Virus record (IMG/VR): IMGVR_UViG_2778261541_000005
DNA from: a virus
Taxonomy: Duplodnaviria > Heunggongvirae > Uroviricota > Caudoviricetes
DNA: 6,383 nucleotides
Direction: 5' to 3' (one strand)
The position numbers and the translations under genes are program-made. Every line of letters starts with the position of its first letter. The first letter of the stretch is position 1. This document shows positions 311-6,383 of this stretch, piece by piece. The notes below the pieces were generated by a model. That model was not told the origin of the DNA. It searched no databases and saw only the letters and a program-made list of their open reading frames with translations.

Positions 311-1087
311 CTAGTAAGTGCCGCGCTTGTTAGGATTCACACCGTACTTTCTCAGCGCTCTACCCGTCCCGCTATTAAGCACCTTTGAAGCCTGAGCGTT
401 AGCTGCATCTGTGAAGGTACTTTCACCATTCTTGACGCTGACGCTCTTAGAACATGCTACACGGGCTTTTAACGCTTCATCTGATAGCTCGCTTGCCGAA
501 TAGCTAAATAGCTCTTTGCAAGTCAACATAGGGCTTCCAAGGCTCGTTGTAGTATTGCCAGTGTTCTTCTTAGAAGTTGTTCCACCGTCATTTGTTGTAG
601 TGGCTTTACCAGTAGCCGCACTAATATCAGTCTGTCCAACTACAGCTTTAAATTCCACACCTTGGAAAGTCATCTGAATACGAAGACCATTAGAGATAGT
701 GTGCTCTTTAGAAGCTTTAAACTGTGTAATCACTGAGTCAGTGATAGAGATTCCATCTTTAGCAACTACGGTGATAAGCTGCTTCTGGTCTCGCCATTGT
801 TCAACCGTAGAAATAAAGGTTTCTACAAGTTGCCCTTGTCTGGTTAATAGAACTGAACCTGTCGAATCAATAACTACGACGCCACTAATAGAGATAGTCT
901 TAGGTGCTCTCTGAACGTTATCAGTGATAGTTTGCCCTGATTGCATAGCCTGAGTTGTCACCATCATCGGTGAGTCATAGTCCATCTGTTCAGTAGCTGT
1001 TAAGGCAAGAAAAGATTCTACATTATCTCTAAGGTGAAAATAGATACCATCTTTACCTGAGTATCTAATTTGCTTTGTGTCAAACAT
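311..1087 (-). CDS. putative tail structural protein, distal-tail-protein-like (258 aa), with a Thr/Gly/Asn-rich linker and a C-terminal extension
   Basis: ATG at 1087 preceded by an AGGAA Shine-Dalgarno. First gene downstream of the tape measure gene, and about the size expected for a distal tail protein. Low-complexity linker [20 protein letters not shown] separates an N-terminal body of roughly 150 aa from a C-terminal domain of roughly 70 aa. Function is inferred from position and size only. Confidence 0.6.
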
Positions 1088-1116
1088 TGTTGTTATTCCT
1101 ATTCTGTTAAGCGTGA

Positions 1117-1171
1117 GCTACGTGAAATCTAATTTTTGGTGGGTATATCTGTTCAGGAGATTTCACGTAGC
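1117..1171. repeat. 14-bp perfect inverted repeat (GCTACGTGAAATCT / AGATTTCACGTAGC) with 27-nt spacer
   Basis: Arms at 1117-1130 and 1158-1171 are exact reverse complements. Sits in the 173-bp gap between the tape measure gene and the downstream tail gene; no flanking U tract, so not a canonical terminator. Confidence 0.55.
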
Positions 1172-1219
1172 ATTCGACTATTCATAGTTGAATCGTCATA
1201 CTAGATAAAGATTAATAGA

Positions 1220-1235
1220 TTGCCATGTGTGGCAA
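1220..1235. promoter_or_regulatory. palindromic site TTGCCA-N4-TGGCAA, candidate operator
   Basis: Perfect 6-bp arms at 1220-1225 and 1230-1235, in the AT-rich region upstream (minus-strand sense) of gene 311..1087. Confidence 0.3.
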
Positions 1236-1260
1236 TAAATATTAGTAGTTCTAACATTGT

Positions 1261-3327
1261 TTATTCCTCTGGGTAAGCTGAGCTAATCAAGGTATCTTCC
1301 TGCATACGATTAATATGCGATGTGGTTCTTTCATCAATAACCTTTCCATCAAGTACCGTCTGAGTTGTGATATTGATTGTCTGAGGCTGAATATTTACTG
1401 ACGGCTTGATAACCTTTAAATCCTGTGTGAATGTTTCCACTCGACCTTTCAGAGTATTTAATGCTTCATGTGAAAACTGTGGGGCATCTTTTGATTTGCC
1501 CTGAACCATAGCCCATAAAACAGCGGCTAAAGAGTTCATGTCACCAGTCAATGCTTGGTCTGTGGGTTCCACCTTTGACCTTACAACTTTATCAATTGGA
1601 TTATCTGACTTACTCATCTGACGTTCATAGAACGGTTTGACAATGGCATTAATCACATCAGTTGTCATACCGACAATCATTACTCTGGTAATTGCATCAG
1701 CTACAGATAATTTTCCTTTACCACCTTCAACACTACCGGAACGTGAATTAATTCTTCCTGCTGCTGTATTTGCTACATTTCCAAGCGTGGAAATAGCCCT
1801 AATTAAGCTCCAGATGCCACCTACAGCACCAATACCAGACCTTACAGCGACAATACCAGCAAGTCCCTTTAATGCACTTAACAGGCCATTTGCGATACCA
1901 TCAGCTACAGCTTTTTGAGTGTCATTTAATTCTCTGTAAGCAAGGGTCACTCTGTCAAAGAATCCCTGCACTCGGTAGCTAATCGTGGTTAAATCATCAA
2001 TACCGTTTGACATACTTTTCATCAAGTCGCCAAAATGTTCACCAAGATTTTTAGATTGACCACCTAGTGAATTAAGTAAATTAGTCAGTGACCTTGTAAA
2101 ATCTACAAGACCTTCCTGTGAACCATCGAACATTAAGGCCAGATTATTGTTCCATGAATTACTTAAGCGGCCTAACTGCGTCTGAGTAGAGTTAATAATC
2201 TTTTCCCATCCACCAGCTTTATCAATCATCCTTCCCATTTCAGCGGATACTTTAGGGAGAACATCTTTAGAAAGAACCTTACCGTCTTTCATGGCCTTGT
2301 CTAATTCTTCCGTAGTCATCCCAAGGCTTCTGGCAAATAACTGAAAAGCACCTGCCATTCTGTCACCTAATTGACCGCGTAGTTCTTCAGCCTGAATCTT
2401 TCCTTTAGAAGCCATCTGTTCGAAAGCTTTTAGAATCCCATTAATTTCATCAGTGCTTAAACCCATTAATCTGGATGTACCAATCACATTACTAAATAGG
2501 GATTCTTTCTGGCCTGCATCCATATCACCAGCACCAGCGGAAAACTTAGCAAAACTGCTTAATGTTTCAATCTGGTCAACACCAGTATTATTAGCAAGAT
2601 TCTTAACAAATTCTGTAGCTCGTTTAGCACCTTCATCACCTAAAACGAATTGTGCCGCTCGTTGTGATGCTTCTTTTTTCAGACCAACTTCCATAACCTT
2701 CTTGTAAGCTTCTAAGGCTGTCTGAAAACTATAAATGGCTGTACCTGCTTTGATTGCACTTGTAGCTAATACATCCAGACTATTTGAAGCATTTTCACTG
2801 TGATTATTTTTGCTGGTGGTCTTATTAAACTTAGAAAGTGTTTCACGTAGATTTTGATTTAACTTTGCTAACTCACGATTAAAAGCTTCGTTTCCAAGTG
2901 TCTTGGATTTACTGCTTAAGTTGTAATATTGGCTCTTAAAATACTTCTCAAGCATAGGATTAAAGTCACGAAGCTTGCTCATATTCACGCTATGCGCTGC
3001 TGTGATTGCTCTGTTTCCGCTAATTCGTGGCTGTCTTGCTGCTTTAACAGTTTCTTCAACCTGAGTTTTGAACTTAAAGACCTTCGTAGATTTGGCTCTT
3101 TCCTCCAGCTTATTAAAAGTCTGGTTAATCTTCTTTTCCATATTCCCCAAAGAGGCTGTTAAATCCTTATCCATGCTCTTTGGGTTAACTTTAAACGCTC
3201 TATTCAAATTACGTTCAATTCTTTGTGCTGACTGCAAAGCTGCCTTTTCAACTCTTTGCAAGCCTTTAATAACGTTTTCATTGAAGCCTAGCTCAACAAT
3301 AAAACTATCAACTGTAAATTTGCTCAT
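1261..3327 (-). CDS. phage tail tape measure protein (688 aa)
   Basis: ATG at 3327 with an AGAGGTGA Shine-Dalgarno 8 nt upstream. Long helical, Lys/Glu/Gln-rich N-terminal region; segment ELRGQLGDRMAGAFQLFARSLGMTTEELDKAMKDGKV resembling the conserved tape-measure domain; Gly-rich hydrophobic stretch LKGLAGIVAVRSGIGAVGGIWSLIRAISTLGNVANTAAG typical of these proteins. Confidence 0.85.
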   Translation of the reverse strand: MSKFTVDSFIVELGFNENVIKGLQRVEKAALQSAQRIERNLNRAFKVNPKSMDKDLTASLGNMEKKINQTFNKLEERAKSTKVFKFKTQVEETVKAARQPRISGNRAITAAHSVNMSKLRDFNPMLEKYFKSQYYNLSSKSKTLGNEAFNRELAKLNQNLRETLSKFNKTTSKNNHSENASNSLDVLATSAIKAGTAIYSFQTALEAYKKVMEVGLKKEASQRAAQFVLGDEGAKRATEFVKNLANNTGVDQIETLSSFAKFSAGAGDMDAGQKESLFSNVIGTSRLMGLSTDEINGILKAFEQMASKGKIQAEELRGQLGDRMAGAFQLFARSLGMTTEELDKAMKDGKVLSKDVLPKVSAEMGRMIDKAGGWEKIINSTQTQLGRLSNSWNNNLALMFDGSQEGLVDFTRSLTNLLNSLGGQSKNLGEHFGDLMKSMSNGIDDLTTISYRVQGFFDRVTLAYRELNDTQKAVADGIANGLLSALKGLAGIVAVRSGIGAVGGIWSLIRAISTLGNVANTAAGRINSRSGSVEGGKGKLSVADAITRVMIVGMTTDVINAIVKPFYERQMSKSDNPIDKVVRSKVEPTDQALTGDMNSLAAVLWAMVQGKSKDAPQFSHEALNTLKGRVETFTQDLKVIKPSVNIQPQTINITTQTVLDGKVIDERTTSHINRMQEDTLISSAYPEE

Positions 3328-3354
3328 TCATGTTTCACCTCTTAAGTGTTCATA

Positions 3355-3398
3355 TACGAAAAAGGGGAGGACCAACCAATTAAGGTTAATCTCTCCCC
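3355..3398 (-). terminator. rho-independent terminator on the minus strand, between gene 3447..3650 and the tape measure gene
   Basis: Minus-strand RNA: GGGGAG (3398-3393) ... CUCCCC (3369-3364), with an inner AACC/GGUU helix, followed directly by U5 (3363-3359). The tape measure Shine-Dalgarno lies about 20 nt further downstream. Confidence 0.6.
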
Positions 3399-3446
3399 GT
3401 ACTATAGATTCGATAGAACCTATCTCATATACCCAACCAATTCTTG

Positions 3447-3674: not shown

Positions 3675-4385
3675 TCAAAGTGCCTTGCTATACTTCTGAG
3701 AAATCTTAGTAAGCTGCTCAATATCAGCCTGCATAGCAATCTTCTTCTGCGTTTCATAGTCACTGATTAGTTGCTTCATAGCTCTAAGCTGGTTAGCAAG
3801 CTCTTGCTTAAATCTGTTTAATTTTTTGCTATGACGCTCAAGTAGATTCTTTTCAGCTAACTGACAAATCTCTTCATCTGTTTTATCAGACAGTAAAATA
3901 TATGAACCTGTACCGCGTGAAGCTGGTCTAACATCAATTAAACGGAATCCTTCAGGGATGTTTTGAAGAACTTTTGAGATATTCTCTCTTGCTGTACCAA
4001 AACCATCATTATCTTCAACTGAGTAATATACGAATGGATTTTGTCTAATTTCCACTTCAATATCAAAATCAGTTGGCTTCTCAGTCTCTTCAAAGTTCTT
4101 CACATTGTCGTAAGCGTCATCTAGTCTAAGGCGCTGTGCTTTTAGCAGTGGGTAATATTCACGCTCAAGCTCAAGTAGTGCTTCAGTTTTGCAGATATCA
4201 GGCATTTCTTGAGGCTCAGGGGCTACAAAGGTAATTTGCTTTGGTGACATCTTTAACTCTTGCTCAAGTGCAATTCTTTCATCGTGTTCTTTACGCTGAA
4301 TAGTGATAGCTGGATGTTCACCCTGTGGTGACCAGTCACCGAAGCTATCAATCACTTTGCCATTAATGTAAATATCATTTGTCAT
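3675..4385 (-). CDS. hypothetical acidic protein (236 aa) with predicted coiled-coil C-terminus
   Basis: The ORF track starts this frame at a GTG at 4430; the ATG at 4385 is preferred because AGAGGA lies 6 nt upstream. Strongly acidic; C-terminal heptad-like segment ELANQLRAMKQLISDYETQKKIAMQADIEQLTKISQKY. No family recognised. Confidence 0.7.
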   Translation of the reverse strand: MTNDIYINGKVIDSFGDWSPQGEHPAITIQRKEHDERIALEQELKMSPKQITFVAPEPQEMPDICKTEALLELEREYYPLLKAQRLRLDDAYDNVKNFEETEKPTDFDIEVEIRQNPFVYYSVEDNDGFGTARENISKVLQNIPEGFRLIDVRPASRGTGSYILLSDKTDEEICQLAEKNLLERHSKKLNRFKQELANQLRAMKQLISDYETQKKIAMQADIEQLTKISQKYSKAL

Positions 4386-4393
4386 TGTTTTTC

Positions 4394-4496
4394 CTCTTCT
4401 AAGTAGGTATTCAGTTTTTAAAAAGCACACCTGACAGCCTACGAACTTAGAAGAGACTTAAAAGCGTTTGCCAAGTATGCTTTTTAAAAACTGAAT
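4394..4496 (-). promoter_or_regulatory. structured 5' leader of gene 3675..4385: 19-bp perfect inverted repeat plus 11-bp anti-Shine-Dalgarno-like repeat
   Basis: ATTCAGTTTTTAAAAAGCA (4409-4427) is the exact reverse complement of TGCTTTTTAAAAACTGAAT (4478-4496), with a 50-bp spacer. Inside the spacer, ACTTAGAAGAG (4445-4455) is the exact reverse complement of CTCTTCTAAGT (4394-4404), which overlaps the GAGG core (4393-4396) of the Shine-Dalgarno. Confidence 0.5.
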
Positions 4497-4597
4497 GACC
4501 CTAGATAATTTCTTATAAAGGGCCATTCATAAGGTGAAGAAATTAAAAGAACATCTAAAGGATTCAATAATGAATTGAATGAACAAAGACTTTTGAG

Positions 4598-6211: not shown

Positions 6212-6383
6212 GCAAACGGTGTTTAGGTTAGCGCAATATTTATCGCTTGGTAGCTCATGGCTTAATCGGGTCGCTTGACGCTGAAGATAATTTGTTACTG
6301 TGCTTGAGCTAATATCATCAAGACTTCGGGTAGTGACTCCAACTTACTGATAGTGTTTTATGTTCAGATAATGCCCGATGACC

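Follow-up and report, generated by a model that had tools for sequence, protein, structure and literature searches.

The 6,383-nt window analysed here (the whole stretch of IMG/VR record IMGVR_UViG_2778261541_000005) carries on its minus strand a gene for a tape measure protein (TMP; 1261..3327, 688 aa, PF20155, phrog_4036) and a Dit-like gene (311..1087, 258 aa, PF21821 Dit_like, phrog_3721, named 'phage baseplate protein' in RefSeq relatives). The two open reading frames (ORFs) delimit an intergenic gap of 173 bp (1088..1260, minus strand), as an earlier note on this DNA had stated. The Dit-proximal part of the gap holds a 55-nt core element, GCTACGTGA-N37-TCACGTAGC (1117..1171, minus strand), in which two arms that pair over 14 bp in the present window enclose an asymmetric AT-rich interior. 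The window is a degraded remnant, flanked by insertion sequences (ISs), of an ~11-kb Escherichia coli chromosomal island, and the element recurs in relatives of this island immediately before the same two genes. Combining the distribution of the element with its pattern of conservation, we suggest, with a probability of about 0.4, that it is a portable, non-canonical regulated promoter/operator that also serves as a recombination joint.

Copies and contexts of the 55-nt element

Copies of the element were gathered by pattern scans of IMG/VR and metagenomes together with E. coli loci. The 143 oriented copies represent 38 distinct sequences, all of which measure 55 nt from arm to arm. Each copy then continues with TCACGCTTAA(C)AGA, and a conserved 3' extension or leader, TCACGCTTAACAGA (1103..1116, minus strand), is present after every copy with the minor variants TAATG and TAACG. 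The copies are found in two contexts only and in one orientation: 102 are located between the TMP stop codon and the Dit start codon and 41 before TMP. The element is separated from the ATG by ~30 nt, or by ~107 nt in Dit-B islands. On the TMP side, all 41 copies lie between a strong intrinsic terminator (8-40 nt upstream) and the AGAGGTGA ribosome-binding site (RBS) of TMP. Many islands contain both copies, as direct repeats ~2.2 kb apart that flank TMP; the present window is without the TMP-side copy, which was lost by deletion (3328-3446 compared with locus L003).

The gap region is found in ~420 of 5,426 complete E. coli genomes (~7-8%), within unannotated sequence, at a median of one place per genome; no location other than between or before TMP and Dit was found. 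In an unbiased sample collected by similarity to Dit, the element is present in seven of nine islands and an empty junction in the remaining two, and the three Suspvirus phages in this sample all have neither gap nor element. The earlier note had proposed to look for conservation of the repeats in relatives, and the repeat-bearing core is indeed conserved and recurrent, the gap being absent from a minority of islands only. A BLAST search of the core against 50,697 phage records returned no match, and k-mer and half-site searches of the whole phiSUSP1 genome gave chance 9-12-mers only, the element being absent from this phage. A recurrent match to TCTTTATCT in phiSUSP1 is coincidental, as it is part of the phage's own early-promoter repeat. 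Additional half-sites elsewhere in the islands amount to coding-sequence coincidences and degenerate copies, and a search of IMG/VR with the broad pattern CTACGTGA-N25-50-TYACGTAG was swamped by unrelated matches and uninformative.

The element is also portable between gene alleles. The core is 94-95% identical between islands in which the TMP 3' ends and the Dit 5' ends are only 72-75% identical, and an identical sequence with the interior variant V1 precedes TMP (21 copies), Dit-B (8 copies) and Dit-A (1 copy). The mosaic islands L037 and L006 change similarity class at the gap.

Altered copies were also encountered. The TMP-side copy of L003 (~14341-14522; also L024, L082, L094 and L100) has a 24-bp insertion, TGATTCGGATAAGAATTATCCTCA, directly after the upstream arm; the insertion holds a palindrome of its own, GGATAAGAATTATCC, and the downstream arm is mutated (ACGTACAACACG) while the interior with TAGAAT is intact. 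This insertion may represent a swapped operator. The element of L007 (Shigella flexneri SFBU1023) and that of L025 are interrupted by an insertion sequence at approximately position 44, and the downstream arm and the leader alone remain before Dit.

Conservation of sequence and of pairing

The inverted repeat described in the earlier note (1117-1130/1158-1171) is perfect over 14 bp, with 27 nt between its arms, and a 14-nt repeat was reached in none of 2000 dinucleotide shuffles of the gap, the longest shuffled repeat being 12 nt. This 14-bp stem is a hybrid of two variants and relatives keep the outer 9 pairs only. Among the 38 distinct copies, the invariant columns are (i) 2-9 in the upstream (5') arm GCTACGTGA (1163..1171, minus strand), (ii) 49-55 in the downstream (3') arm TCACGTAGC (1117..1125, minus strand), and (iii) A19, A24, A26, A36, A37, A39, T41, A42, T46 and T47 in the interior. 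Positions 10-23 occur as the unrelated versions AATCTTCTGAACAG, ATAAAGCAAAGTTA and AATCTGTAAAGCTA. Positions 41-46 form a -10-like hexamer, TAGATT in the present window (1126..1131, minus strand), in which T41, A42 and T46 are invariant and positions 43-45 vary; the variants TAGATT, TATTTT, TAGAAT, TAGTTT and TAATTT all conform to TAnnnT, and the hexamer keeps the same distance of 2 nt to the downstream arm that follows it.

Pairing between the arms is conserved to a lesser extent than their sequence. About half of the variants have broken inner pairs (7 to 20 of the 38 sequences for the individual pairs 10-14), and the changes in the arms at columns 1 and 6 are uncompensated. Six stem pairs are invariant and four depart from pairing by unpaired cells only. 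Overall pairing is 84.6% compared to a shuffle mean of 84.0%, and the covariation score was reached by 173 of 500 shuffles. Given the lack of covariation and the broken inner pairs, we conclude that the arms are conserved as sequence at a fixed distance and not as a helix.

These observations bear directly on the idea, put forward in the earlier note, that the repeat is an RNA processing or stability element. In this alternative, the main rival to the reading that we favor and in our view a less likely one, a hairpin in a polycistronic TMP-Dit transcript would set the TMP:Dit ratio by providing an RNase III or RNase E cut, a 3' stabiliser of the TMP mRNA, a 5' stabiliser of the Dit mRNA, or a translational insulator. 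In its favor, the present window yields a strong hairpin (-18 kcal/mol, z -7.6), and a hairpin still forms in every variant; the gap as a whole folds into three hairpins (z = -3.9), in line with the folding check that the earlier note had proposed; the element begins 9-18 nt after the TMP stop codon in several islands, a typical place for a 3' hairpin; a 28-bp hairpin lies just before the RBS of another gene in the same island, so that intercistronic hairpins may be a theme; and no canonical promoter was found. RNase III sites in T7 and lambda typically comprise roughly 20 bp of double-stranded RNA, about two helical turns in coaxial stems, and the conserved stem of 9 bp closing a 37-nt loop is far below this size. 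In addition, columns 1, 6 and 10-14 change without compensation and there is no covariation, conservation of the interior is highest at A/T residues that do not pair, TMP-side copies lie behind a strong terminator that already provides a 3' hairpin, and the copies in which the inverted repeat is disrupted (L003 type and L252) nevertheless retain an intact interior and leader. With 9 conserved base pairs, broken inner pairs and no covariation, a structure-selected RNA element is not specifically supported, the perfect 14-bp stem being particular to the present window. A terminator function is not indicated either: a scan found no intrinsic terminator in the gap, the loop measures 27-37 nt, the stem is followed by TCACGCTTAAC, and the absence of a U tract, as previously noted, holds after either hairpin of the gap and on both strands. 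An Rfam search of the whole window by E-value returned nothing in 1088-1260.

The same data speak to whether the element is a selfish or neutral palindromic mini-element, similar to miniature inverted-repeat transposable elements (MITEs) or repetitive extragenic palindromic (REP) sequences, or a mere recombination linker, kept by spread or gene conversion without a regulatory role. In keeping with such an entity, the element has terminal inverted repeats (arms of 9-14 nt) and a constant length, is polymorphic for presence or absence at both sites, recurs unchanged in three sequence contexts and coincides with mosaic junctions. Yet the 55-nt core lacks a target-site duplication, the 8-12-nt direct repeats flanking the whole 170-bp insert being a duplicated RBS/start region; the element occupies two positions in one island family, in one orientation, and no others in ~420 genomes; no cognate transposase was found, the one ORF annotated as 'transposase' matching no family; and the diverged interiors alongside invariant arms, TA...T and leader argue for selection rather than recent spread. 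We judge this explanation unlikely.

The two direct copies that flank TMP at ~2.2 kb in many islands raise the question of whether the element is a crossover or accessory site for a serine recombinase of the island, either the large integrase or the small resolvase/invertase, that would allow excision or exchange of TMP. Two candidate enzymes are encoded in the island, a large serine recombinase of 547 aa and a resolvase of 182 aa with HTH_7, and the inverted repeat is roughly of att-like total size. In the core sites of serine recombinases (hix, res, att) the half-sites abut a central 2-bp crossover, whereas the element has its invariant half-sites separated by 37 bp and varies most at its centre. 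No island was found with TMP precisely deleted between the copies, each Dit-side copy follows a TMP stop codon, and the real attachment sites of the island are at wrbA or tonB, making a recombinase site very improbable.

The promoter/operator reading and comparison with known systems

Since the element is always upstream of a start codon, in one orientation, behind a terminator on the TMP side, and with fixed geometry, TAnnnT and invariant arms, we favor a DNA-level control element. On the TMP side in particular, the element follows a terminator and lies just before the RBS, and this is the sole place at which transcription could restart. Of the functions proposed in the earlier note, that of a protein operator is the best candidate given the fixed 37-bp spacing, the invariant arms and the invariant TA...T.

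Combining these features, we infer promoter activity, a start site and protein binding for the element, with TAnnnT as the -10 element, and propose the following scheme. The Dit-proximal ~95 bp (1088-1181) constitutes one copy of a cassette comprising the 55-nt core, the leader TCACGCTTAACAGA and the RBS, and the island family places this cassette directly before each of the two captured tail genes. The invariant TA...T (TAGATT, 1131..1126) would serve as the -10, with the transcript starting near the downstream arm ~33 nt before the Dit ATG, and this start would be gated by a dimeric regulator bound to both arms, be it a repressor or an activator encoded by the helper or the island. Expression of Dit, and of TMP in relatives, would in this way no longer depend on transcription from upstream. 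The conserved cassette would incidentally offer a homology patch for swaps of TMP and Dit alleles between islands.

Several observations weigh against this proposal. A consensus scan found no sigma-70 promoter in the gap (no site with at least 9/12 matches), and in a scan of the 38 variants on both strands with a sigma-70 position weight matrix (PWM) the best site within the element scores 2-5.6 bits, compared to a shuffle median of 3.8 and a 95th percentile of 7.6. A weak -35-like hexamer, TGAACA (1150..1155, minus strand), precedes TAGATT by 18 nt where the interior is of type V1 or V2; it is absent from V3 and V4, and its PWM score does not exceed that of shuffles. No regulator was identified, the island proteins having no DNA-binding matches in Pfam, NCBIfam and PADLOC beyond the recombinases, and there are no additional half-sites elsewhere in the island. 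In the present window, TMP follows a terminator without an intervening element, and the homologous phiSUSP1 terminator, located inside a late operon, is probably leaky, so that read-through may suffice. Finally, all variants still form an RNA hairpin of 9-11 bp (-9 to -17 kcal/mol). With PWM scores inside the shuffle distribution, a canonical sigma-70 promoter is rejected. Motifs for sigma-54, sigma-28, sigma-E, sigma-32, the MotA box, LexA, CRP, IHF, DnaA, RfaH ops, TyrR and ArgR were compared by eye and none fits the spacing across variants. In the absence of a canonical promoter, the promoter, if real, must depend on an activator or a helper-modified polymerase, a dependence that would suit late-type satellite genes.

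The PWM scan also pointed, in almost every variant, to one recurrent site on the reverse strand, TTAAGC-17-TAATTT/TATTTT. This raises the question of an antisense promoter or small RNA in which plus-strand TTAAGC (conserved GCTTAA) and TAATTT/TATTTT (the A-tract) would fire into the TMP 3' end. The site scores 3-5.8 bits, but this is within the shuffle distribution; there is no terminator, no conserved antisense product and no Rfam match, and before TMP such a promoter would fire into the back of the terminator. We regard an antisense function as the least probable of the explanations considered here.

The promoter/operator reading has parallels in several known systems. The PeSL (promoter-early stem-loop) elements of T4-type phages are mobile regulatory cassettes that combine a strong sigma-70-like promoter with a terminating stem-loop (Arbiol et al. 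2010, PMC2839356; Comeau et al. 2014, PMC4122927). Like PeSLs, the island element is a short, repeated and conserved intergenic cassette that joins a palindrome and a promoter-like sequence at gene boundaries, displays presence/absence polymorphism, is more conserved than its flanking genes and marks joints of module swapping. It differs in lacking the two defining functional features of PeSLs, i.e. the strong sigma-70 promoter and the terminator stem-loop; its repeat encloses the promoter-like part rather than following it, with a loop of 27-37 nt and without a U tract; and there is no sequence similarity, the host being a chromosomal island with one or two copies per island. The element acts in a PeSL-like manner in genome evolution and is not a member of the PeSL family.

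A second parallel is found in phiSUSP1, which belongs to the phage lineage that is the source of the island's tail genes. At 66.2-72.9 kb (L021 and L022) this phage has at least seven near-identical intergenic repeats before small early genes, each with a canonical promoter, TTTACA-N17-TAGGAT/TAAGAT, in a hairpin GGGGTTTA...TAAGCCCC followed by AGATAAAGA; the arrangement is PeSL-like and occurs in Ounavirinae, and we found no paper describing these hairpin-embedded early promoters. As in the island element, a promoter-like -10 lies inside an inverted repeat, the downstream arm directly follows the -10, and the unit is repeated before successive genes. The phage repeats, unlike the island element, have a good sigma-70 promoter and a GC-rich 8-bp repeat (GGGGTTTA/TAAGCCCC), and the two share no sequence similarity.

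The late promoters of P2/P4, with upstream dyad symmetry, and the C-dependent promoters of Mu are operator-flanked or activator-dependent late promoters. The island element resembles them in its poor or absent -35, its -10-like TAnnnT, a dyad in fixed register and a position before morphogenetic genes of a helper-dependent element; it is unrelated to them in sequence, and one of its half-sites overlaps the predicted start, suggesting repression or bracketing over upstream activation. Similar to T7-like RNase III sites, REP/BIME sequences and Correia elements, it is an intergenic palindrome of ~55 nt within an operon that could shape the relative expression of its neighbours, but its stem is too short (14 bp here and 9-11 bp in common variants), its loop very large and covariation absent, and in contrast to REP/BIME and Correia elements it is not dispersed in the genome and no target-site duplication was found. 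The element matches no Rfam family, nor does it have the character of an intrinsic terminator, of a typical RNase III site, of a MITE or of the core site of a recombinase.

Should the element be a regulated promoter/operator, it would illustrate how a mobile island domesticates genes of a virulent phage, each with its own portable control unit, in contrast to the phage, where TMP and Dit are translationally abutted within a long late operon. As a more speculative extension, to which we give a rather low likelihood, the cassette could be a helper-sensing plug-in promoter/operator switch of satellite-like islands that parasitise, or defend against, virulent Suspvirus/Ounavirinae phages. TMP and Dit would then be silent until infection and subsequently be expressed independently of the helper's late operon, and the interchangeable interiors V1-V4 would encode different regulatory specificities. 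As a regulated control unit, the 55-bp sequence with its invariant arms would provide a handle on the role of the island (tail hijacking, tail poisoning or a change in host range) and on the inducing signal, and would give an instance outside T4-type phages of conserved regulatory cassettes at which modules are exchanged by recombination. A mere RNA hairpin or neutral linker would be an ordinary finding.

Composition of the gap and of the island

The 173-bp gap is composite and consists, in the direction of transcription, of a fossil junction, filler and the cassette. The fossil TMP-Dit junction ACAATGTT (1253..1260, minus strand) comprises the old Dit start codon and 2 nt and is the same as the live junction at 1085-1092; direct repeats (1080-1091/1250-1261 and 1093-1100/1261-1268) bracket a 170-bp insert. 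The lineage-specific filler (1182..1252, minus strand) follows, and then the conserved 5' flank of the cassette, ATAGTCGAAT (1172..1181, minus strand), which in other islands is located directly after the TMP stop codons (TAATAG). Downstream of the core and leader, the Dit ribosome-binding region ATAGGAATAACAACA (1088..1102, minus strand) ends at the ATG (1087) and accompanies the cassette in Dit-A type islands.

The filler holds a 7-bp ATTGCCA/TGGCAAT palindrome (1219-1236) and a small hairpin (1176-1197). The palindrome extends the TTGCCA-N4-TGGCAA sequence at 1220-1235 that the earlier note had singled out in addition to the 14-bp repeat; it is present as described, and its occurrence is at chance level. 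In the AT-rich gap (34% GC) two 6-bp short-loop repeats were observed compared to a shuffle mean of 0.58, a number equalled by 14% of shuffles, and both arms of the palindrome have uncompensated substitutions across relatives. The TMP-proximal stretch of ~71-77 nt was found in 34 loci, exclusively in the TMP-Dit gap context. It includes an 18-codon ORF, MLELLIFIATHGNLLIFI* (1201..1257, minus strand), that starts at the fossil Dit ATG behind a TMP-internal GAGGAA; a real micro-gene is unlikely given that the ORF uses the duplicated old Dit start, is confined to the 173-bp lineage and has its stop changed from TAG to TGG in one relative, and the ORF is probably a by-product. We regard the TMP-proximal ~80 bp, including the TTGCCA palindrome and the 18-codon ORF, as filler arising from recombination of the cassette into a once-abutting TMP-Dit junction.

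Among relatives, the gap measures 3 bp (GAGGAATAA-ACA-ATG) in L008, L258 and L259, which have the empty junction GAGGAATAAACAATGTTTGAC, 92 bp in L009, 99 bp in L010, 157 bp in the L001 type, and 173 bp in the present window, L003 and L012. The empty junction is rare, being present in at most 6 of 155 matching genomes, and the others are split by the 170-bp insert. In gaps of the L001 type (e.g. L001 3925-4014; Dit allele MIYSNQ...), an extra conserved leader of ~95 nt is located between the cassette and the RBS; it has its own inverted repeat (TCAAAGGCTT...AAGTCTTTGA) and is absent from the present window.

The ends of the window are IS copies, with IS1 at 6328-6383, and its interior matches a chromosomal island common to many E. 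coli genomes. In the intact relative SCU-387 (NZ_CP051688), which is 98.9% identical across the gap, the ~11-kb island adjoins wrbA and encodes, in order, the 547-aa large serine recombinase, Dit, TMP, ~10 small ORFans, an HNH protein and the 182-aa resolvase; other island copies adjoin tonB. The earlier description of the gap as lying inside the tail module is misleading, as TMP and the Dit-like gene are the sole structural genes of the island (compare L003 9655-20475). Searches of the neighbouring island ORFs with Pfam, PHROGs, NCBIfam and PADLOC recovered the recombinases and the HNH domain, and otherwise identified neither a regulator nor a transposase or defence protein. Based on the large serine recombinase and the mostly ORFan content, the island looks like a phage satellite or defence island with two captured tail genes, and it may be an undescribed satellite or tail-interference island. 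A literature search found no description of TMP+Dit islands or of the 55-nt element; one paper reports that TMP genes have been exchanged between a virulent coliphage and E. coli loci that are not prophages.

TMP and Dit were captured from a Suspvirus-like virulent myophage. The Dit-like gene is 77% identical at the nucleotide level to that of phiSUSP1 (ALH47047), a virulent myophage of the genus Suspvirus in Ounavirinae, and the TMP C-terminus, ...SSAYPEE*, is common to the phage and other islands. In Suspvirus phages, TMP and the next gene overlap (TAATG) without a gap in a tightly packed late operon, which bears out the earlier impression that a gap between these two genes is unusual.

Upstream of TMP, an intrinsic terminator (GGGGAGAG...CCUCCCC + UUUUU; 3359..3398, minus strand; -26.9 kcal/mol, z -4.4) lies 30 nt before the TMP start and is similar to the terminator that follows the phiSUSP1 tail-tube gene (record 10570-10648). 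The region 3355-3446 (minus strand) contains a sigma-70-like site (ATGAGA-16-TATAGT), a short leader hairpin and this strong terminator, with the TMP start 30 nt further on, a promoter-leader-terminator layout that recalls antitermination-controlled late operons.

Elsewhere in the window, RefSeq names the orthologue of a 251-aa ORF (3675-4430, minus strand) 'transposase'. The ORF has no match in Pfam, NCBIfam, PHROG or PADLOC and, by eye, neither a HUH nor a DDE motif, and the label is probably wrong. Interleaved inverted repeats are located at 4394-4496, with 28-nt arms (4409-4436/4469-4496, 89%) and 16-nt arms (4394-4409/4440-4455, 88%). The E-value search of the window against Rfam gave chance miRNA-type matches only at 4405-4501. 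Folded as minus-strand RNA, 4394-4496 gives a hairpin of 28 bp (-46 kcal/mol, z -7.2), the end of which is ~15 nt upstream of the RBS of the 251-aa ORF (4430..3675); its possible functions include those of an RNase III site, an attenuator and an operator.

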